DNA of 64,000 bases from an uncultured Candidatus Saccharibacteria bacterium (GTDB lineage Bacteria > Patescibacteriota > Minisyncoccia > Phycocordibacterales > UBA918): contig CAZSOS010000001.1 of the NCBI GenBank assembly GCA_964608605.1, forward strand, positions 117,888 through 181,887. Direction: 5' to 3'. The notes below the pieces were generated by a model that was not told the origin of the DNA, searched no databases, and saw only the letters and a list, made by a program, of their open reading frames with translations. This document shows positions 14,563 through 34,214 of this stretch, one piece after another. The position numbers were made by a program, and so were the translations under genes. Every line of letters starts with the position of its first letter. The first letter of the stretch is position 1.

Positions 14563-14570
14563 AAAAGGGT

Positions 14571-17500
14571 ATGCACCAAAGACGCGCCGCGTTTATCGGC
14601 GGTCTCAGTCTTTTTCTGTTAGTGTTGGCGATCTGCTTCTGCGTTGGCTTTGTTTTTTCAGCGCGTCAGACACCTGAAGAGAACGCGGTGAGTTCCGGTG
14701 TAGAAAAGGCAGAGCCGGTCTCGTTCTCTCCTTGGCGGACTCTCTTCTGCGGTCTGCGCTCGCTTGTCCTTTGGCCTTGTGCTGAACCGACTTCTCTCCC
14801 AGAACCTTCTATGCCCGCTCCAACCACTTCCATTGAGACGCGGCCGGTTCCGGCAGTCGATCTAGATGTCGCTACCACCTCTGCTTCAACCACGTCTTCT
14901 TCACCCTCCACCCAATACATAACTAACGAAACCATAGTCCGCCCCCTCGAACGCGAAATCATCCGCGAAATCACCATCCGCGACCAGGCCGTCGACACTT
15001 CCCGTTTCGTCACCCGTACTGAATATGATAGGCAAGTAGACGCGCTTCTGCGGTCCATTGAGAGTAAAGGTGGTAGTACCACTATAGTGGATCAAGGTGG
15101 CGGTGGAGGAGGTCCTGAAACCGACCCTGTCTTCATCGCTTCCGCCGCTTTTACCATTACTGGTGGTGATCTTTCTGATTGGAATCAGGCTTTTGGATGG
15201 GGTGATCACACCCAGGCTGGTTATCTAACTTCGTTCACCGAAAATGACCCACTTTTCTCCTCGTCCACCGCCGCTTCCATCACCAATACGGATGTCTCAA
15301 ATTGGAACCAATCTTTTGCTTCTTCAAGCGTGCTATCTATATCAGTGTCTGGTCTCATGGCGTCGTCGAGCGCTTGGGACCAGGCTTTTGGGTGGGGCGA
15401 CCACTCCCAAGCCGGATACCTCACTTCGTTCACCGAACTCGACCCCATCTTCAGCACCTCACCGGCCTTCGGCATCAGCGGCACCAATATCAGCAATTGG
15501 AATAGTACGTACACCACCGTCACCGCCTCCTCTTCACAGTGGGGAAGCGCGTACACCTTGGCCACTCTCTTGAACTCCGCTTCCTCCACCTGGAACCAAG
15601 CCTACTCCTGGGGCGACCACTCCACGGAGAACTACATCCAACAGAACACCGACGCCACTCTCGACAACGCCACCACCACCAACCTCACCACCAACACACT
15701 CACGCTCTCTGGAGCGCTCAAGACTGGTCTCTCAGACGGTTGCGTTGAAGTAGCTGGCGGTGTCCTCACTTCTCTGGGAGTGGCATGTGGCACTGGCGGC
15801 GGGGGACTGACAAACCTCAATGGCCTCACCTCTTCCTCGCAATCTTTCGCCACTTCCACTTCCGGCGGTCTTTCTCTTAACATCACCTCATCGGGAGGGG
15901 TACATACGTTTTCTGTGGGACTGCAGGCTGGTCGGACCCTGCCGCTTACCGCTAGTACCACTGAGTGGGCCAACATCAGGAACCTGGTCAACGCCTCCTC
16001 TTCACAATGGGGAAGCGCGTACACCTTGGCCAATCTCCTCAACAGCGCCTCCTCCACCTGGAACGCCGCCCATGCCTCCACCACCGCCCTCACGCCCTCG
16101 TACCTCCGCGGACTCTTCAATGCCGGTACCGGCCTCTCGTACGGCACCACCACTGGCACCTTCACCAACACCGGCGTCCTGTCGATCGGAGGGCTGAGCG
16201 GGAGCGTGGCGACGAGTTCGTTGGGGCTTGGTAACAATAGCTTCATCGGATTGTCCGACACCCCAGGTTCATATAACGCCGATCGCGTCTTGTTCACCAA
16301 TGCTGCCGGCAACGCTTTGACCGACTCCGCCAACTTCACCTATAACGGCAGCTCCGAGTTGCTGACGATCAGTGGCAACCTCGCCACCGGCTACGGCATC
16401 TCTTTGGGGTCTTCCGGAGGCATATATGCCAGTGAAGATATCCTGACCGCGGGCAACGGCATCAATATCATCGGTACCGAACACGCGGTTTTAAGGACCG
16501 GTAACGCTTACGTCTCTCTCACTGATGATGGAATCGATACTTTTGCCAATATTGCTGGTGATGGTGTCCAGCTCTACTCCCATTTTGATGACATCACCCT
16601 TCATTCCACTAATAACATCATTCTCACCGGCATCGGCAACGTCGGTATCGGCACCACCACGCCATCGCACAAGCTGACGGTGGCAGGAAACACTCTTATT
16701 GCTGGGAATGCCACTACTACGGGCAACCTAGTGGTGCAAGGGGCGGACATCGTGCTGGGAAACACTGGCATGGGTTACATAAGTAGTGCTTCAGGTGGAG
16801 TCTTGATCCTGGGGGGCGCCTCTAACGGTACCGGTGAAAATCTACGTTTTGATTTTGATATCAGTACTGGTCTTGATTTAGATGTGGTAACAGTAAGTTC
16901 TGGCACCGGTGCTAATCATTTGTTATTCCTCATGGGCCTGGAGACGATGGGAAATCTTAAGGTCGGCGGCAATATCACCGATGCTACCTGGCAGGGAAAT
17001 GATATCGACATCTCCGACTACACCAACCTCGGCGTCACCGCCACTGGTCTTTCTCTTTCTGGAGATAACATCGCTCTGACTGCTGGCTATTCCATACCAC
17101 TCACCTCTTCCACCTCAGAATGGACCACAGCGTATTCCTGGGGCGACCACGCCACGCAAGGCTACTTGACCGGCCTCGGCACTTCCACCTTCAACGGCAA
17201 CATTTCGATGGCCGGACATATCATTCCGGCGGCCGACATCACCTACGATCTCGGTTCACCCACTAGCATGTGGCGGGACGTCTACATCGGTCCGGGTTCT
17301 CTCTATATCAATGGCAAGAAGGTGTTGGAGGACGTGTCGGATACCATTACGTTGCGTACCGATCACAACCAGAATCTCGCGGTGCAGACCAGCGGTATCG
17401 GCAGTATTCATGTCAATGCTTCATCCACCGGCGGCATCACCATGGAGTCCATCTCAGGTAATATCAACATCACCTCCGCCTCTGGCAACCTCAACATCGG

Positions 17501-20500
17501 CACCACCGGCAGCGGTCAGCTCAACCTCGGCACCATTAACCAAGGCGTCTGGCACGGCACCGACGTCGACATCTCCGACTACACCAACCTCACCGTCTCT
17601 GCCACCGGCCTCACTTTGAACAACGACGCCATAGAGCTTGCTTCCGGCTATGCTATTCCACTCACCGCCAGCACCACTGAATGGATGAGCGCTCGCACTG
17701 ACGTGCTCGCGCTCACGGCCTCCTCCACCCTTTGGGATTCTTTCTACAACACCCCTTCATCCCGCCTCACCGCCGGCACCGGTCTCTACTGGAGCGGCAA
17801 TACTCTAAACGCTTCGTCGTCGGCTGACATCAACTACTGGACGTTGTCGGGAGGCAATGTTTATAGGGCTTCCGGCAATGTGGGTATCGGGACTTCCACT
17901 CCCGCTGCTAAGCTGGATGTTCAAGGTAGCTGGTTGCGTCTCCTTAATCCAAGTGGGGGATCGAGCATAACCTCGCAAAGCGTAGGAGGGGAGGCTATTT
18001 TCGCGGCGCGCAATTCGGCCAACGCTTGGACCTCCGGTGTAAACACCAGCGGACAGTATTTTATCTACGACGAGACCAATGCCAGCATACCTTTCCGTAT
18101 CTATCCTAGTTCTGCGAACAGTGTCATGTCAATCAATGGTAGTAATGTTGGTATCGGCACTACGACTCCGAACTCTAAGCTTCACCTAGCCGATGGATAC
18201 ATGCTTGTAACGCGCTCAGAGACCGCTAGTCAACCTAACTTTTATCAAGCCTTGAACTCCAGCGGCAGCGGCTTCGGTCTTAGATATACCGAGGATGCTA
18301 TCGGAAACATCCCGGCAGATGCCTGGCAGTTCAGATTATCCGGAACCAACGTCAGCCCGCTCATCTTCTCAACTTTCGACTCGACTCCGATCCTGACCAT
18401 GGCGACTTCCGGCAATATTGGCATTGGTACTACGACGCCTAACGCGGCGTTGGACATCAGTTCCACAGCTACGGGGGCTGTCACGGCAGCCTTCTTTAGA
18501 TCGAACCCAGGTGGTGCTGGGGCGGCGAATCAAAATACGATTGTGCTCGATAACCTGCAGGGTTCCGCTAACTTCAAAAATTCCATCCGACTCGCCAGTA
18601 ACGGGGCTTTGAAGTGGTCATTCGGAAATGATTACTACGGCGCTGGAGAGCAGAATTTCTTCATACATGACGCGGTATCCAACGCGGCGCGTCTCTTGAT
18701 AGATCCGGACGGCAACGTCGGTATCGGGACCACCAGTCCAAACAGTATCTTGAATATCAACACCGGCCTCTCCGGTTTTATGGGCCTTCCCGCACACGGC
18801 AGTGTAGGCTTCGGTAATTTCAGTTCTGGTAATACGGCACCTAGCATGATGGCCCGCTCGGATAATTCGACGGCCCTCCGTCTAATTAGCTTAGCAAGCA
18901 ATAGCAACACTGACGCCGACATGAACTTCGATGTCCGTGAGAACGACAACACCGACTTCGCCACCTTGACCAGTCAAGCGTTCAGCTTCAGCCGTTTTGG
19001 CAATAGCCTACTCACTATCCTACGCAGCGGCAACGTTGGCATCGGTACCTCGACGCCCAGTGCGAAGCTTAGTGTACAAGGCACCATTCGGGCAGAGAGT
19101 GTCTCATCCATTAGTACAGGGTCTGGCGTTGAAATCAACTACAACACCGGCACCGGACTCGGTAAGATCCAAGCCTATGATCGAGACGCAAGTACTTTTA
19201 AGGACTTGTGGCTAGATGGCTCTACGCTCACTCTCGCTACTGGCGGTGCTTCTCGCGTGACCATCCTTCCTTCTTCAGGAAATGTCGGTATAGGAACCAC
19301 TACTCCTCAAGCTACACTTCATCTCGGCACTTACGGCGCCACCCTCCGCCTCAATAGCCCAATAACTGGTTCTGGCATATACGGATACAATGACGCTAGT
19401 GGCGGTTTAGCTTACTCCTTCACGCGTCAATCCAACGACCTTCATATCACCGGCGCGACCGGCATCGGGTTCCAGTCTAACGCAGGTTCAGGCATAAATA
19501 CTGCTAGCACCTCGATGTATATCTCTTCCGCCGGCAACGTGGGCATCGGCACTACAACCCCAGCGAGCAGATTAAGCGTGTTTTCAACTGACAGCGTTAT
19601 CGCGGAATTCACCGCTTCGTCATCGGCAGCTACTCGAATGAAGCTAAATACCACAGGTTCCAATAAAAACGTGGGACTTAGTCTGGCAATAGACGGCATT
19701 ACTCGATGGACCAACGCCGCCTATCTCCCGAACGGGACTAACTATGACTACACGATATGGAATGACGCACTTAATAGTCCAGCCCTCCTCATTGACGGTG
19801 ACACGAACAACATCGGTATCGGCACCCTTAGTCCTGCATACAAACTCCATCTGGCCTCCGGCACGACGACGTTGGCCATGGTACCGTGGCAATCGGATGA
19901 TCTGGTAATACAAGGAGGTCTGGCAGAACAGAACGGCATCTCCATAGTCAACGGCTCCAATAAATACCTCACCTTCGTTGATGACAACATCGGCATCGGC
20001 CAGATCGGCTATTACTGGAACGGCAACATGAACTTCCTCACCGACGGCACGGAGCGAATGGTTATTAATGCCACCGGCAACGTCGGCATCGGGACCACAT
20101 CACCACTTACGAAACTCGACGTGAAGGGCTCGATCTTGATCGATCAAGGATCGAACGGACGTCTCATATTCAATAATTATACTTCTTTGTCAGATCATGG
20201 ACCATATATCGGCTACTCTACAGGTAACAATTCCATGGACATCGTGTCCGGAATGAACCCCAATGCCAATGGCGTTGGCACGGGTGGTATCCGCTTCGGT
20301 CGAGCCAGCGGTTCGTCGTGGGCCACGACCATGGTCATCGACGGCTCCGGATTGGTCGGTATAGGTACCTCAACACCTACACACAGTCTCACCGTAGGCG
20401 CGGTCAATTCGACCGTTGATCGGATTATCCGGGTCGTATCGCAAAATAACGTTGGCCTTATCCTTGAAGCCGATACGGATAATCTTACCGAGACACATAA

Positions 20501-21470
20501 CCCGTACGTGAAGATGTCGCAAGACGGTGGGGCGGTGGCTAGTATCATGGGTATGACCGGTGGTGCCAACATCGATCCTGAGGGTAATACCTTCACCGGC
20601 GGACACGATAATGCCCTGGTCTTGATCAACCAGTATGCCGGTTCAATACAGTTGGGTACTAACGGAGCTCCCCGGCTCTCTATCGTTTCTTCGGGTAATG
20701 TCGGCATCGGCGCCTTGTCTCCCTCCGCCCAACTCCACACCACCGGCACCGTCCGTTTCGCCAATTTCGGCGCCGGCACCCTCCAGACCGACGCCTCCGG
20801 CAACCTCTCAGTCTCCTCAGACACCCGTCTTAAAGACCTCGAAGGTACCTTCGACCGCGGACTCGAAGCCATCTTAGGCATAGAACCCATCATGTACCGC
20901 TGGAACGCCGCTTCCGGCTACGACCGTTCTACTCTATACGCCGGCTTCTCCGCCCAGAACGTGGAAGACTTCATCCCCGAAGCCGTGGGTACCAACCCTG
21001 ACGGTTTCCTCTCGTTGTCTGATAGACCGCTCCTGGCGGCGGTGATCAACGCGGTGAAGGAGATATACGGCCAATTGACGACTTTGTCCGATAAGATCGC
21101 TGGCTTTGCCGACAGCTTTATGTCCGCCAGCATCACCGCCACCGACAGGATCTGCGTGGGAGACACATGCGTTACCGAAGGTGAGTTGAAGGCCGTGTTG
21201 GATATGGTCGGTAGCAATGGTGGAGGCTCTAACGATGGAAATGGCAGCTGGGGCGGATCTTCCGGCGGCGGCGACACCACGACCGGTACTTCGACCGCCT
21301 CCACCACGCCGCCGGTTACCTCGACCTCGACACCGCCCGCCACTCCCGTATTAGGCTGTATGGACCCTCTGGCTTCGAACTTTGCTCCCGCGGCCACGGA
21401 GGATGATGGTTCGTGCGTATTTCCGCCCGCGCCGCCGGACGAGTCGGCCACCACCACTCCGGCGGAGTGA
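14571..21470 (+). CDS. giant secreted/surface repeat protein (2299 aa): N-terminal TM/signal, Pro/Thr-rich linker, tandem repeat modules, ~12 GNVGIGTTTP-type repeats, C-terminal phage tailspike-like intramolecular chaperone (peptidase S74-like) domain and Cys motif tail
   Basis: uninterrupted ORF; internal repeats visible at protein level; SSDTRLKDLEG...IMYRWNAASGYDRSTLYAGFSAQNVEDFIPEAV motif near C-terminus. Confidence 0.85.
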   Translation: MHQRRAAFIGGLSLFLLVLAICFCVGFVFSARQTPEENAVSSGVEKAEPVSFSPWRTLFCGLRSLVLWPCAEPTSLPEPSMPAPTTSIETRPVPAVDLDVATTSASTTSSSPSTQYITNETIVRPLEREIIREITIRDQAVDTSRFVTRTEYDRQVDALLRSIESKGGSTTIVDQGGGGGGPETDPVFIASAAFTITGGDLSDWNQAFGWGDHTQAGYLTSFTENDPLFSSSTAASITNTDVSNWNQSFASSSVLSISVSGLMASSSAWDQAFGWGDHSQAGYLTSFTELDPIFSTSPAFGISGTNISNWNSTYTTVTASSSQWGSAYTLATLLNSASSTWNQAYSWGDHSTENYIQQNTDATLDNATTTNLTTNTLTLSGALKTGLSDGCVEVAGGVLTSLGVACGTGGGGLTNLNGLTSSSQSFATSTSGGLSLNITSSGGVHTFSVGLQAGRTLPLTASTTEWANIRNLVNASSSQWGSAYTLANLLNSASSTWNAAHASTTALTPSYLRGLFNAGTGLSYGTTTGTFTNTGVLSIGGLSGSVATSSLGLGNNSFIGLSDTPGSYNADRVLFTNAAGNALTDSANFTYNGSSELLTISGNLATGYGISLGSSGGIYASEDILTAGNGINIIGTEHAVLRTGNAYVSLTDDGIDTFANIAGDGVQLYSHFDDITLHSTNNIILTGIGNVGIGTTTPSHKLTVAGNTLIAGNATTTGNLVVQGADIVLGNTGMGYISSASGGVLILGGASNGTGENLRFDFDISTGLDLDVVTVSSGTGANHLLFLMGLETMGNLKVGGNITDATWQGNDIDISDYTNLGVTATGLSLSGDNIALTAGYSIPLTSSTSEWTTAYSWGDHATQGYLTGLGTSTFNGNISMAGHIIPAADITYDLGSPTSMWRDVYIGPGSLYINGKKVLEDVSDTITLRTDHNQNLAVQTSGIGSIHVNASSTGGITMESISGNINITSASGNLNIGTTGSGQLNLGTINQGVWHGTDVDISDYTNLTVSATGLTLNNDAIELASGYAIPLTASTTEWMSARTDVLALTASSTLWDSFYNTPSSRLTAGTGLYWSGNTLNASSSADINYWTLSGGNVYRASGNVGIGTSTPAAKLDVQGSWLRLLNPSGGSSITSQSVGGEAIFAARNSANAWTSGVNTSGQYFIYDETNASIPFRIYPSSANSVMSINGSNVGIGTTTPNSKLHLADGYMLVTRSETASQPNFYQALNSSGSGFGLRYTEDAIGNIPADAWQFRLSGTNVSPLIFSTFDSTPILTMATSGNIGIGTTTPNAALDISSTATGAVTAAFFRSNPGGAGAANQNTIVLDNLQGSANFKNSIRLASNGALKWSFGNDYYGAGEQNFFIHDAVSNAARLLIDPDGNVGIGTTSPNSILNINTGLSGFMGLPAHGSVGFGNFSSGNTAPSMMARSDNSTALRLISLASNSNTDADMNFDVRENDNTDFATLTSQAFSFSRFGNSLLTILRSGNVGIGTSTPSAKLSVQGTIRAESVSSISTGSGVEINYNTGTGLGKIQAYDRDASTFKDLWLDGSTLTLATGGASRVTILPSSGNVGIGTTTPQATLHLGTYGATLRLNSPITGSGIYGYNDASGGLAYSFTRQSNDLHITGATGIGFQSNAGSGINTASTSMYISSAGNVGIGTTTPASRLSVFSTDSVIAEFTASSSAATRMKLNTTGSNKNVGLSLAIDGITRWTNAAYLPNGTNYDYTIWNDALNSPALLIDGDTNNIGIGTLSPAYKLHLASGTTTLAMVPWQSDDLVIQGGLAEQNGISIVNGSNKYLTFVDDNIGIGQIGYYWNGNMNFLTDGTERMVINATGNVGIGTTSPLTKLDVKGSILIDQGSNGRLIFNNYTSLSDHGPYIGYSTGNNSMDIVSGMNPNANGVGTGGIRFGRASGSSWATTMVIDGSGLVGIGTSTPTHSLTVGAVNSTVDRIIRVVSQNNVGLILEADTDNLTETHNPYVKMSQDGGAVASIMGMTGGANIDPEGNTFTGGHDNALVLINQYAGSIQLGTNGAPRLSIVSSGNVGIGALSPSAQLHTTGTVRFANFGAGTLQTDASGNLSVSSDTRLKDLEGTFDRGLEAILGIEPIMYRWNAASGYDRSTLYAGFSAQNVEDFIPEAVGTNPDGFLSLSDRPLLAAVINAVKEIYGQLTTLSDKIAGFADSFMSASITATDRICVGDTCVTEGELKAVLDMVGSNGGGSNDGNGSWGGSSGGGDTTTGTSTASTTPPVTSTSTPPATPVLGCMDPLASNFAPAATEDDGSCVFPPAPPDESATTTPAE

Positions 21471-30820: not shown

Positions 30821-31306
30821 ATGAAAAAGTATTTGGTGTTGGCTGTAGTGGTTTTGGCTGGTGTTGTCCTAGCGTCTTACTTCATTAAAAGTAATGGAAG
30901 CTCTGTGCCATTGGTGAAAAATCAGGAAACTAGTGCCGCCCAGTTTTCTTGGGATGTTGTAGTGGACAGATCAGCATGCGATAGTCATATGTGCGACTCA
31001 GATCTTTACCTGAATTACGGTGAGCACCGTTTTCAAATCAATGACTACATCCGGTCAAGGATGATTGGGCAATGTGGGTCGTACGATGGTGCGTATGCTG
31101 ATTTGCGAGAACAGAATCCACGTTCTAATTTGCCAACCGAAGATAGCTTAGTAACCTACAAGGATTGTCTGGTTATGGGAGGAGGCAGCTTGTATTATGT
31201 ATTGGACCAAGGTACAGGGTATCAGGTGATGGAGAAAGAATTTAGCGATGCGGATTACTCTAGTGAACCAAGTAACCCAAGGGTCATATTTGTAATAGAG
31301 AAATAA
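30821..31306 (+). CDS. hypothetical secreted Cys-containing protein, AT-rich gene
   Basis: signal-like MKKYLVLAVVVLAGVVLAS; lower GC than surroundings. Confidence 0.5.
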   Translation: MKKYLVLAVVVLAGVVLASYFIKSNGSSVPLVKNQETSAAQFSWDVVVDRSACDSHMCDSDLYLNYGEHRFQINDYIRSRMIGQCGSYDGAYADLREQNPRSNLPTEDSLVTYKDCLVMGGGSLYYVLDQGTGYQVMEKEFSDADYSSEPSNPRVIFVIEK

Positions 31307-31397: not shown

Positions 31398-34214
31398 ATG
31401 CATAAAAAGTTCGATCATCAGGCCATAGAGAAGAAATGGCAGGAAAAATGGCGGGAGAGCGACCTCTATCGGACCGATGGCGATTCCGCCAAGGAGAAGG
31501 TCTACGTGCTCGACATGTTCCCGTATCCATCCGGCGAAGGCCTCCATGTCGGACACCCGAAGGGCTACATCGCCACCGACGTCTACTCACGTTTTAAAAA
31601 GATGAGCGGCTTCGAAGTGCTGCACCCGATGGGTTGGGACGCTTTCGGCCTGCCGGCGGAGAACTTCGCCATCAAACACAAAGTGCATCCGCGAGTAGCG
31701 GTGGAGAAGAACATCGCCAATTTCAAGGAGCAGCTGGCGCATCTGGGCTTCAATTACGATTGGTCGAGGGAGATCAACACCACCGATCCCGAATACTACA
31801 AGTGGACGCAGTGGATCTTCCTGAAGCTCTTGGAGAAAGGTCTGGCCTACGAGTCGCGCGAGCCGATCAACTGGTGTCCTGGCTGTCAGACGGGCCTGGC
31901 CAATGAGGACCTTGAAAGCGACGGTACTTGCGAGCGCTGCGGCTCGGTCGTCGAGAAACGGCCGATGCGCCAGTGGGTCTTGAAGATCACCGCCTATGCC
32001 GATCGGATGCTCGAAGATCTGGAGACGCTGACCGCCTGGCCCGAACACATCAAAGAAGCGCAACGCAACTGGATCGGCCGTAGCGAAGGCGCCGAGATCG
32101 ACTTCAAACTTACCAGCGGCGAGACCGTTACTGTTTTCACAACCCGGCCGGATACGCTCTTTGGCGCTACCTACCTGGTGCTAGCGCCCGAGCATGAATT
32201 GGTTGCTAGATTAGCGATCGAAAACAAAGACGAAGTGGCGGGGTACGTGCGAGCGACCGCCGAAAAGACCGAGATCGATCGCACCAACGCCGAGAAGGAA
32301 AAGACCGGCGTGGAATTAAAAGGCGTCAAGGCGATAAATCCAGGGAATGGCGAAGAAATTCCGGTCTTTATCGCCGACTATGTCCTCTCTCACTACGGCA
32401 CCGGTGCCATCATGGCCGTCCCGGCGCACGATGAGCGTGACGGCGCATTCGCGCGGAAGTTCGGTTTGCCGATTAAAGTGGTGATCGCACACGAATACGT
32501 CAACATCAAAGAAGGAGTAGAGACATTGGAGCGTGGTGATGTCGTCGATCTCATCATTGAGCACCCCACGAACGGTACCTTTTTGTTGCAACGTGAGAAA
32601 GATGAACATGGGCCAGATCATGTTCACTTTGTAGGCGGCGGTACGGAAGGGGAGTCGCATGAGGACGCCATTGCCAAAGAGTTAGTCGAAGAAACTGGTT
32701 TCCAGAATTTTGAGATCATTGGCACGCCAGTAAACGTGACCAACGCCTTCGCGTATCGGCACAATAAGAACAAGAATCAAAAAACCAGAAGTCACTTCTA
32801 CTATATAAAGCTGAAAAATCTGGACCAGATCCCTTCTGAGATCGAGGAAGGTAAACACACGATCGAGTGGGTATCGAAAGAACAGCTGGACAAGCTGATC
32901 ACTTGGGACGCGCACAGGGCCGCCTGGAATAATTTTATTGGCAAGGAATATCTGACCAAGAGTGGGATGCTGGTCTTTTCAGACGAGTTTTCTGGTATGG
33001 ATTCTGAAGAGGCCAAGAAATCTATTGTGGAGAAGGTGGGCGGACGGATGACGAATACCTACCGTTTAAATGACTGGGTGTTCTCACGCCAGCGGTATTG
33101 GGGCGAGCCCATTCCGGTGATTCACTGCTCCAATTGCGGCGTGGTGCCGGTTCCCTATGACCAACTGCCGGTGAAGCTGCCTGAAGTGGAACATTACGAG
33201 CCGACCGGTACGGGAGAGTCGCCGCTGGCGGCTATCGACGACTGGGTCAATGTGGACTGCCCGAAGTGCGGCGGCCCGGCCAAGCGCGAGACCAATACTA
33301 TGCCGCAATGGGCCGGTTCTTCGTGGTATTACCTCCGCTTCATCGATCCGAAGAACGACCAGGATTTGATAGACCCGGAGAAGGAAAAGAAATGGGCGCC
33401 GGTGGACGTCTACGTGGGCGGCGACCACGCCGTCAGGCACCTGATCTACGCTCGCTTCTGGCATAAATTCCTCTACGATCTGGGCGTGGTTTCCACCATC
33501 GAGCCTTTCATGCGGTTGGAGTTCCTGGGCTTCATCCTGGCCGAGGATGGACGCAAGATGTCCAAGCGCTGGGGCAATATCATCAATCCGGACGATATCG
33601 TGAAGCAGAATGGCGCGGACGCTTTGCGCGTCTACGAGATGTTCATGGGTCCGTTCGAGAACACGGTGGCCTGGAGCACCAATGGCCTTGTGGGAGCGCA
33701 ACGTTTTGTCGAGAGAGTGAACGGTCTTTCCGAGGACATCACGGAAGCTGAACCAGCCGAGACCTCGCGGCTGCTGCATAAGACTATCAAGAAGGTGCGC
33801 GATGACATCGAATCGTTCAAATTCAACACGGCGGTGAGCGCCATGATGATCTTCGTGAACGCGGCGGAAAAGAGCGGACTATCTCAGGGATCATACGAGA
33901 CCTTCCTGAAGCTCTTGGCACCCTTCGCGCCGCATCTTTGCGAGGAGCTGTGGGAGGCGGCCGGACACGGGACGTCGATCCATCTGGAAGAATATCCGAG
34001 CTTCGATGCCGCTTTGGCTAAGGACGATCTGGTGACCATCGGCGTGCAGATAAACGGCAAAGCCCGCGGATCCATCACCATCGCGCCGGAGGCGGATGAA
34101 GCGGCCGCGATCGCCGCCGCCAAGGAGGAACCCGGCTTGGCGAAGTATCTGGAAGCGGGGGAGTTGAAGAAGGTGGTCTATGTTCCGGGTCGCATCCTGA
34201 ACCTGATCGTCTGA
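31398..34214 (+). CDS. leuS: leucine--tRNA ligase with an embedded Nudix hydrolase domain (aa ~364-518)
   Basis: class I HVGHP (HIGH) and KMSKR motifs, editing-domain TTRPDT..HDERD; insert contains Nudix box GGGTEGESHEDAIAKELVEETGF. Confidence 0.95.
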   Translation: MHKKFDHQAIEKKWQEKWRESDLYRTDGDSAKEKVYVLDMFPYPSGEGLHVGHPKGYIATDVYSRFKKMSGFEVLHPMGWDAFGLPAENFAIKHKVHPRVAVEKNIANFKEQLAHLGFNYDWSREINTTDPEYYKWTQWIFLKLLEKGLAYESREPINWCPGCQTGLANEDLESDGTCERCGSVVEKRPMRQWVLKITAYADRMLEDLETLTAWPEHIKEAQRNWIGRSEGAEIDFKLTSGETVTVFTTRPDTLFGATYLVLAPEHELVARLAIENKDEVAGYVRATAEKTEIDRTNAEKEKTGVELKGVKAINPGNGEEIPVFIADYVLSHYGTGAIMAVPAHDERDGAFARKFGLPIKVVIAHEYVNIKEGVETLERGDVVDLIIEHPTNGTFLLQREKDEHGPDHVHFVGGGTEGESHEDAIAKELVEETGFQNFEIIGTPVNVTNAFAYRHNKNKNQKTRSHFYYIKLKNLDQIPSEIEEGKHTIEWVSKEQLDKLITWDAHRAAWNNFIGKEYLTKSGMLVFSDEFSGMDSEEAKKSIVEKVGGRMTNTYRLNDWVFSRQRYWGEPIPVIHCSNCGVVPVPYDQLPVKLPEVEHYEPTGTGESPLAAIDDWVNVDCPKCGGPAKRETNTMPQWAGSSWYYLRFIDPKNDQDLIDPEKEKKWAPVDVYVGGDHAVRHLIYARFWHKFLYDLGVVSTIEPFMRLEFLGFILAEDGRKMSKRWGNIINPDDIVKQNGADALRVYEMFMGPFENTVAWSTNGLVGAQRFVERVNGLSEDITEAEPAETSRLLHKTIKKVRDDIESFKFNTAVSAMMIFVNAAEKSGLSQGSYETFLKLLAPFAPHLCEELWEAAGHGTSIHLEEYPSFDAALAKDDLVTIGVQINGKARGSITIAPEADEAAAIAAAKEEPGLAKYLEAGELKKVVYVPGRILNLIV

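Follow-up and report, generated by a model that had tools for sequence, protein, structure and literature searches.

We describe a leucyl-tRNA synthetase (LeuRS) gene, leuS, whose product carries a complete Nudix hydrolase domain inside its CP1 editing domain. The gene lies in a window of 64,000 nucleotides (nt) from contig CAZSOS010000001.1 of an uncultured Candidatus Saccharibacteria bacterium (assembly GCA_964608605.1). The window is the whole stretch of DNA that was analyzed, and positions below refer to it. Alignments with relatives show that the loop that holds the domain is a cassette site, at which alleles are rapidly exchanged; the insert of the window is one such allele and no constant part of the enzyme. 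The reading we favor, with moderate confidence, is an intact LeuRS bearing an exchangeable, selected and probably catalytic Nudix domain that would be functionally coupled to the synthetase, with a guessed substrate of the diadenosine polyphosphate (ApnA) hydrolase or RppH kind.

The host synthetase. The leuS open reading frame (ORF) contains neither a stop nor a frameshift within its 938 amino acids (aa), so one polypeptide results, as the initial annotation of this DNA had stated. The product scores 1006.3 bits against the bacterial LeuRS model TIGR00396 leuS_bact (cut-off 548.4), in two stretches parted by the insert, and matches Thermus thermophilus LeuRS (1H3N) at E 1.2e-228 in three alignment blocks (phmmer). 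An AlphaFold2 model of the whole protein, built with 71 homologues, has a predicted local distance difference test score (pLDDT) of 84.6 and aligns to solved LeuRS structures with template modeling (TM) scores of 0.67–0.71 (Foldseek). The HIGH, KMSKR, TTRPDT and HDERD motifs are all present, in line with the earlier description of an otherwise canonical LeuRS. Across 71 aligned LeuRS, with and without an insert, neither the editing nor the synthetic motifs vary; both activities should therefore be untouched by the insert, and the host LeuRS appears unaffected.

The insert matches the Pfam model PF00293 (NUDIX) over residues 383–504 at 47.8 bits (cut-off 21.1, E 1.9e-12), and at 51.2 bits when excised. 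The LeuRS editing-domain model PF13603 (205 bits) is interrupted at position 144 of 185, so the insert lies inside CP1, in its C-terminal third, where it replaces the 13-residue loop 366–378 of T. thermophilus LeuRS. The alignment to that enzyme restarts at its residue 379 (residue 521 here), within CP1; the earlier placement of the insert directly after the editing domain was therefore wrong. Insert limits were set from empty-site alleles, with junctions ...VVI/AHEY... on the left and ...TKSG/MLVF... on the right. They keep the left end first proposed (32487) and move the right end from 32951 to 32960.

In the whole-protein model the insert has a pLDDT of ~90–95 and forms a Nudix beta-sheet, with helix 421–433 over the Nudix box. 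A separate model of the domain (pLDDT 92.7) gave 455 matches in the PDB at E <= 0.001; the best 50 of the 455 are all Nudix proteins. The top match is 2AZW (TM 0.75/0.80, root-mean-square deviation 2.8 Å; Foldseek). The box reads G413-x5-E419-x7-K427-E428-L-V-E431-E432-T-G434-F and keeps all positions of GX5EX7REUXEEXGU except for Arg to Lys at K427, a substitution that the pattern quoted in the initial annotation already allowed. The Pfam match above cut-off, the confident fold and the uninterrupted frame bear out its claim of a complete, in-frame Nudix domain. Features of the gene are listed in Table 1.

Table 1. Features of leuS and its Nudix cassette in the window (residues are those of the LeuRS product)
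Feature	Residues	Position	Strand	Basis and remarks
leuS, bacterial-type leucyl-tRNA synthetase, Nudix cassette included	1–938	31398..34214	+	938 aa, single ORF; TIGR00396, phmmer, AlphaFold2, Foldseek
HIGH signature H50-V-G-H53, class I catalytic site	50–53	31545..31556	+	From translation; invariant in 71 aligned LeuRS
CP1 editing domain, N-terminal part	~223–363	32064..32486	+	PF13603 over residues 223–367 = model 1–144 of 185
CP1 motif TTRPDT	248–253	32139–32156	+	Invariant with or without insert
CP1 motif HDERD	344–348	32427–32441	+	Invariant with or without insert
Nudix cassette, 'T1' type	364–521	32487..32960	+	Pfam, empty-site alleles, Thermus alignment, model; replaces 2–18 residue loop of other LeuRS
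Nudix box G413...E419...K427-E428..E431-E432.G434-F435	413–435	32634..32702	+	Pattern match; on predicted helix 421–433
Basic beta-hairpin Y453-RHNKNKN-Q461 (family consensus YRHTKNKNQ)	453–461	32754..32780	+	Hallmark of T1 Nudix type; between strands 438–454 and 459–472 (model)
S480-E481-x3-G485-x-H487 (SEIEEGKH), candidate second acidic/metal-binding site	480–487	32835..32858	+	Four residues invariant in T1; putative catalytic role
CP1 editing domain, C-terminal part (LVFSDEFSGMDSEEAK...)	~522–555	32961..33062	+	T. thermophilus alignment restarts; right-hand swap breakpoints here
KMSKS-type loop K720-M-S-K-R724	720–724	33555..33569	+	Invariant in 71 aligned LeuRS

Exchange at the CP1 loop. 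PF00293 is found in 70 of the 120 closest LeuRS clusters (about 905–1160 aa, most 932–1001) and is missing from the other 50 (781–842 aa). The inserts at this loop fall into at least nine types at 40% identity. T1, the type of the window, accounts for 32 of the 70 carriers and is marked by the motifs VDLIIEHP, HFVGGG, YRHTKNKNQ and SEIEEGKH; T2, the second commonest, accounts for 15. On a neighbor-joining tree of 120 LeuRS cores, insert types and empty sites are thoroughly intermixed. Cores that are 98.4% identical over 768 residues carry T1 in protein P0155 and T3 in P0211. T1 in P0143 is paired with an empty site in P0174 (97.5% core identity), T1 in P0175 with T2 in P0240 (93.6%), and T6 in P0180 with an empty site in P0189 (91.8%). 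The core of the window is 86.5% identical to that of P0168, whose site is empty. Loop length is naturally variable, and some LeuRS have short fillers of 26–43 aa.

The same turnover can be followed in DNA. Loci L043 and L044 are 95–100% identical on both flanks and fall to the random level, about 35–40%, in the cassette alone. L045 and L046 differ by a clean indel of ~450 nt in a mosaic of blocks 85–100% identical. The divergence continues for a handful of codons into the LeuRS part of the gene (the 'xIKPVI' strand and 'GxLxNSxEF') up to the breakpoints, which lie in two conserved motifs, HDERD..FAKKF (left) and DGMxSEEAK (right). Since the swap tracts end in conserved LeuRS-coding flanks, the alignments indicate homologous recombination between leuS alleles and not a site-specific element. 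Along the whole of leuS, L045 and L046 alternate between blocks of 100% and of 73–91% identity, a pattern that suggests frequent recombination within the gene. For 32 of the 33 carriers, GC content at third codon positions (GC3) drops in the cassette relative to the remainder of the gene (mean -0.14; 0.57 versus 0.75 in the window), and total GC in the window falls from about 57% to about 47% over the insert. The low-GC3 signature would fit continuing cassette exchange.

Mobile elements were considered as the vehicle. The insert has no splicing junction residues, no Hint or endonuclease Pfam match and no terminal repeats, and no transposase is present at the cassette. With breakpoints in coding flanks and a Nudix fold covering the whole insert, an intein or transposon-like element is ruled out. 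A viral or phage origin was likewise rejected: IMG/VR gave four generic partial Nudix matches only, and INPHARED none.

Occurrence. An identical protein is present in NCBI (332-kb contig), and an 86%-identical protein comes from another sample. The nearest named relatives of the LeuRS belong to Candidatus Kaiserbacteria. A pattern scan of one genome per GTDB species located relatives of the insert at 40 loci, all but one titled Patescibacteria/Candidate Phyla Radiation or unclassified metagenome-assembled genomes; 40 species is a lower bound, because the scan used two T1-specific peptide patterns only. The LeuRS frame is uninterrupted across the insert at 28 of the 40 loci. Gene order is conserved: DUF5671, LeuRS, sigma70_r4/HARE-HTH, DUF8128, YceG.

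Some frames are broken. On two very long JGI contigs (993 kb and 248 kb), LeuRS has 3–5 frameshifts (L001:5227-8057, L002:4925-7758). These look like assembly indel errors because YchF is also split in L002 and the contigs are very long JGI assemblies; a pseudogene reading was set aside on that ground, with no evidence either way. At L052:1-616, and also in L023, L036 and L041, there are in-frame TGA codons inside LeuRS, one of them at the conserved Gly of NSGEF. They point to genetic code 25 (UGA = Gly) in these organisms, which are of the Gracilibacteria type. Under code 11, gene callers cut such leuS genes into false 'free' Nudix proteins. P0009 is an example. It was ruled out as a T1 Nudix gene of its own, since L052 shows TGA four times in frame and its LeuRS goes on in that frame (NS*EFDG), probably under code 25.

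The same Nudix pool at other leuS sites. A search with the insert against 1.84 billion representatives returned 137 proteins, mostly LeuRS or LeuRS fragments. Besides the site of the window (site A), related domains occur near residue 210–245 at the N-terminal CP1 hinge (site B), often two in tandem, and between residues 619 and 629 at the second zinc knuckle (site C). A custom profile hidden Markov model counted 156 domains at site A, 18 at the hinge and 4 at the zinc knuckle; hinge domains reach 61% identity to those of site A. Sites are also occupied together, as in P0016 (two Nudix at the hinge and one at site A) and P0025 (site A and zinc knuckle). Two tandem Nudix domains were seen at site A in L006:1315-4692, P0007 and P0147, and a tandem at the hinge in P0038.

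Members of the family also exist as genes next to leuS. In the P0033 locus (JGI 3300071358), a separate 163-aa Nudix gene of this family stops 1 nt short of leuS in conserved synteny, and that leuS has an internal Nudix as well (gene table). At L022:3255-3851, a Nudix ORF ends in TAA and leuS begins 3 nt later. Separate-gene status is established for these two loci only; other 'free' matches may be fragments. Fusion in some genomes together with adjacency in others is a classical signature of functional linkage and therefore points to such a link between this Nudix group and leuS.

Selection and catalytic residues. The window and L047 were compared on a codon alignment by the proportions of nonsynonymous (pN) and synonymous (pS) differences; because synonymous divergence (dS) has reached saturation, the comparison is limited to pN and pN/pS. 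pN is 0.093 in the insert, 0.061 in the N-terminal core and 0.120 in the C-terminal core, with saturated pS of at least 0.73. By this measure, the insert is under purifying selection comparable to that on the synthetase itself. Twelve residues are invariant in 24 T1-type sequences (E428, E431, E432, G434, R454, K457, N460, S480, E481, G485, H487 and H506), and Y453, K459 and Q461 are at least 90% conserved. A fully canonical box, including the Arg, is present in 28 of 32 T1 sequences and in 106 of the 156 site A domains, and the three core glutamates (E..EE) are kept in all insert types examined, T2 included.

On the reading we favor, LeuRS would be a working bacterial-type enzyme of a Patescibacteria (Kaiserbacteria-like) genome, in which the variable surface loop of CP1 holds a complete Nudix fold. 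The Nudix would belong to a Patescibacteria group with a 2AZW-like fold and the basic YRHTKNKNQ hairpin, tied to leuS in three ways: as an abutting gene, as in-frame inserts at three or more LeuRS loops and as tandem copies. The domain is predicted to be a Mg-dependent pyrophosphohydrolase held at the synthetase. As a guess, it would act on some by-product derived from nucleotides or on an RNA-end structure, in the manner of ApnA hydrolases or RppH, and would bring an accessory, strain-variable benefit, not an essential step of leucylation.

Several observations weigh against this reading. The box of the window has Lys for the usual Arg, which is the case in only 2 of 32 T1 sequences, and P0141, its closest relative, has lost the first Glu (E419 to K) and the Arg (to N). 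T2 inserts always lack both the first Glu and the Arg; with their boxes degenerate, catalysis would not be universally retained. To judge from the alleles, presence and absence between 97.5%-identical cores shows that the insert is dispensable for LeuRS function. Some carriers already encode a separate Ap4A-hydrolase-like gene (Ap4A, diadenosine tetraphosphate). Finally, the insert reaches none of the curated NCBIfam Nudix subfamily cut-offs (RppH, MutT, NudC, ADPRase and others), and the mixed specificities of its structural neighbors make the substrate guess weak.

RppH models are the commonest weak match, hit by 22 of 24 family members (best E 4.5e-9); the insert scores 30.5 bits against NF001936 and its relatives, where the cut-off is 118. 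For MutT, the scores are 26.3 bits against 148 (NF008044) and 20.8 against 97.9 (TIGR00586). With a family profile, the closest PDB sequence is 2AZW (E 7.5e-7, 23% identical); a plant Ap4A hydrolase is matched at E 0.0023, and no closeness to ApnA hydrolases was seen in this search. The fold neighbors after 2AZW are ADP-ribose pyrophosphatases, RppH, Ap4A hydrolase, CTP pyrophosphohydrolase and YmfB, with no evident ranking among them. An invariant Tyr is located 18 residues past the Nudix box; we take this residue to be a marker of ApnA hydrolases and used it as a lead, not as a test.

In Saccharibacteria-like insert carriers, a separate Ap4A-hydrolase-like Nudix gene (WTIPKGHIEEGE...) lies about 1–2 kb downstream of leuS, with E 5e-15 to Aquifex 3I7U and matches to NUDT2 and Ndx1. 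It was seen at L014:9001-9501, L018:3330-3839, L019:3991-4479, L020:7981-8475, L021:8292-8786, L026:8019-8570 and L029:8191-8679. Because of this gene, the insert is not simply 'the' Ap4A hydrolase of those carriers. Leucyl-adenylate (Leu-AMP), a mixed anhydride of the acyl-phosphate type, lacks the nucleoside-diphosphate-X linkage at which Nudix enzymes cut. The initial annotation had suggested clearing of Leu-AMP, Ap4A or NAD/ADP-ribose caps; given the subfamily scores, the mixed neighbors and the separate gene in some carriers, none of these finds direct support.

Alternatives. We think it unlikely, though worth weighing first, that the module is non-catalytic, with selection acting on something other than hydrolysis. 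CP1 would then use the Nudix fold as an appendage for binding or structure, for example as an additional RNA/nucleotide surface or to regulate CP1 movement. The defective boxes of T2, the window and P0141 would be expected on this view, as the window–P0141 pair is nevertheless under strong purifying selection. The invariant basic residues of the hairpin (R454, K457, N460) would suit phosphate or RNA binding, and each of the three insertion sites falls within the mobile CP1 and zinc modules or next to them. What favors catalysis instead is the retention of the E..EE glutamates even in T2 and the complete box in most site A domains. In addition, two loci have a family member as a separate gene directly beside leuS, and near-identical enzymes leave the loop empty, so a structural role is not required.

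Rather less likely, in our estimate, is a neutral or selfish passenger. Small single-domain hydrolase genes would then settle in permissive loops of a recombining essential gene, where excision is rare and expression guaranteed, and homologous recombination would carry them along with segments of leuS, with no benefit tied to LeuRS. Presence, absence and replacement between cores 92–98% identical, the 'foreign' composition of nearly all cassettes (32 of 33 carriers), the variety of sites and copy numbers, and the natural length variation of the loop with its 26–43 aa fillers would all be compatible with this. So would the other small hydrolases embedded in a similar way, Ham1 in LeuRS and His_Phos_1, Nudix and Ser_hydrolase in isoleucyl-tRNA synthetase (IleRS) of Dojkabacteria. 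However, pN of the insert is as low as that of the core, and it is related Nudix domains, not random genes, that recur at three LeuRS sites and in the abutting gene. The absence of a transposase, intein motifs and terminal repeats, the breakpoints in LeuRS coding sequence, and the lack of a viral or phage association in IMG/VR and INPHARED also argue against a passenger.

These other embedded hydrolases form a wider pattern. P0235 (JGI, 1157 aa) is a LeuRS with a Ham1/ITPase domain (246–353) at the CP1 N-terminal hinge and a Nudix domain (595–713) at the site of the window. With Ham1/ITPase, LeuRS is seen to contain another sort of 'house-cleaning' pyrophosphatase besides Nudix. In P0050, an IleRS, Nudix occurs together with His_Phos_1. 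Among its relatives (P0260–P0327; the 120 closest are mostly Candidatus Dojkabacteria, WS6), many have His_Phos_1 (PF00300), Nudix (PF00293) or Ser_hydrolase/alpha-beta-hydrolase (PF06821, PF12697) domains. Dojkabacteria IleRS with inserts are 1180–1540 aa long and are named in the sources only as 'class I tRNA ligase family protein'. On these domain assignments, Patescibacteria class Ia synthetases carry small hydrolase domains. P0083 (1318 aa), found through its Nudix domain, is a fusion of GNAT, Nudix, GNAT and M17 leucyl aminopeptidase.

A broader proposal, speculative and in our view improbable, takes the class Ia synthetases of Patescibacteria (LeuRS, and IleRS in Dojkabacteria) as platforms for exchanged hydrolase cassettes, namely Nudix, Ham1, histidine phosphatase and serine hydrolase. 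The cassettes would act, at the synthetase, on damaged or toxin-modified tRNA ends, nucleotide toxins or alarmones, and this arms-race or repair locus within an essential gene would be kept diverse by recombination between alleles.

We consider it quite improbable that the variable Nudix cassettes form a conflict or repair module, an arms-race locus that clears a nucleotide-derived lesion or toxin at the synthetase (for example, tRNA 3'-end pyrophosphate or ADP-ribose adducts that reach CP1, or toxic alarmones or dinucleotides). Strain-level turnover and horizontal exchange do resemble those of defense loci. CP1, in which the insert sits, binds the tRNA CCA end. Dojkabacteria IleRS joins Nudix with histidine phosphatase, and the insert has a weak match of 31.9 bits in PADLOC-DB, to the candidate single-gene family PDC-S07. 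A lesion of this sort is known: toxSAS toxins pyrophosphorylate the tRNA CCA end and thereby block aminoacylation (bioRxiv 10.1101/2021.04.30.441581; PMC11559606). The known reversal of tRNA pyrophosphorylation, however, is by small alarmone hydrolase (SAH) enzymes, and that paper makes no mention of Nudix. The PADLOC and PHROG matches are generic Nudix similarity, so that a defense assignment was not adopted, and no toxin, antitoxin or defense genes were seen in the conserved leuS neighborhood.

An assembly chimera or sequencing artifact, named in the initial annotation as the possibility to check and hinted at by the GC dip over the insert, can be dismissed for practical purposes: the GC3 dip is general to the cassette, NCBI has the identical protein and another sample one that is 86% identical, and dozens of independent in-frame assemblies share the same synteny. 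The two checks that the initial annotation put forward as refutations both came out in favor of the insert, since the Nudix profile matches and many relatives carry the domain.

Comparison with known systems. The LeuRS of the window shares with those of T. thermophilus (1H3N/2BYT) and Escherichia coli (4AQ7/4ARC) the domain order, HIGH/KMSKS, ZN1, a CP1 with the T-rich motif and catalytic Asp, and the anticodon-binding and C-terminal domains. It differs in having a 158-residue Nudix where they have a CP1 loop of 13–18 residues, and in lacking the leucine-specific domain (T. thermophilus residues 580–637), which precedes KMSKS in Thermus and E. coli. The alignment skips from T. thermophilus 579 to 638, placing the absence at window 33540-33560 (residues ~715–721). 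Close LeuRS relatives all lack this domain too, whether or not the insert is present.

Among the NCBIfam matches, NF040702 (isoleucine-tRNA ligase, N-acetyltransferase domain-containing), a model curated as an exception, is similarly a class Ia synthetase with a second, unrelated catalytic domain; the guest in the window is instead a Nudix inside CP1, polymorphic among near-identical alleles and found at several sites and in tandem. The uncharacterized MutT/Nudix protein 2AZW of Enterococcus faecalis, the best match by both sequence and structure, has a similar length and C-terminal helices, but it is free-standing and lacks the YRHTKNKNQ hairpin consensus. The insert shares weak RppH model matches and Foldseek neighborhood with RppH/ApnA hydrolases (E. 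coli RppH, Aquifex 3I7U), although it scores far under their cut-offs and the true Ap4A-hydrolase-like protein of carriers is of another sequence type.

Covalent joining of Nudix to another enzyme is also seen in NadM-Nudix and in mycobacterial MutT1, whose domain pair of Nudix and histidine phosphatase (PMC12407098) recurs in the Dojkabacteria IleRS relatives. Those fusions are end to end and within one nucleotide pathway, whereas the Nudix of the window is nested in an editing domain. Like inteins and homing elements, the cassette is present or absent at a fixed site of an essential gene and spreads by recombination in conserved flanks. Unlike them, it is a folded Nudix kept in the mature protein, without splicing residues or a Hint/endonuclease domain.

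Two other ORFs of the window were noted. Between a DUF5671-like gene and leuS, window 30821-31306 (+) encodes 161 aa with an N-terminus resembling a signal peptide or membrane anchor. This ORF has no Nudix box; it occupies the position of the stand-alone Nudix gene in the P0033 locus and L022. A very long ORF at 14565-21467 (+), 2301 aa from stop to stop, has a hydrophobic segment at its N-terminus.

Synthetases with extra domains (e.g. NF040702, an IleRS with GNAT) and Nudix fusions are already known. We found no description of a LeuRS–Nudix or other aminoacyl-tRNA synthetase–Nudix fusion, or of such cassettes, in the full-text literature searched, which leaves out most subscription journals. 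What appears to be new is a CP1-nested Nudix that recombines as a cassette, varies from strain to strain and turns up at several sites in an essential gene.

Few proteins are as conserved as aminoacyl-tRNA synthetases, whose idiosyncratic insertions are as a rule taken for fixed lineage traits. Here, an essential synthetase has an enzyme domain that is gained, lost and swapped among near-identical strains, always in frame and in the proofreading domain or its hinges. Two consequences are practical. In the sources, such proteins go simply by the name 'leucyl-tRNA synthetase' or that of 'class I tRNA ligase family protein'. LeuRS, a common phylogenetic marker, is also mosaic in these genomes, and intragenic recombination as in L045/L046 matters for its use as a marker. 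For the biology of these minimal-genome organisms, the cassette points to an unrecognized link between Nudix chemistry and leucylation or editing.

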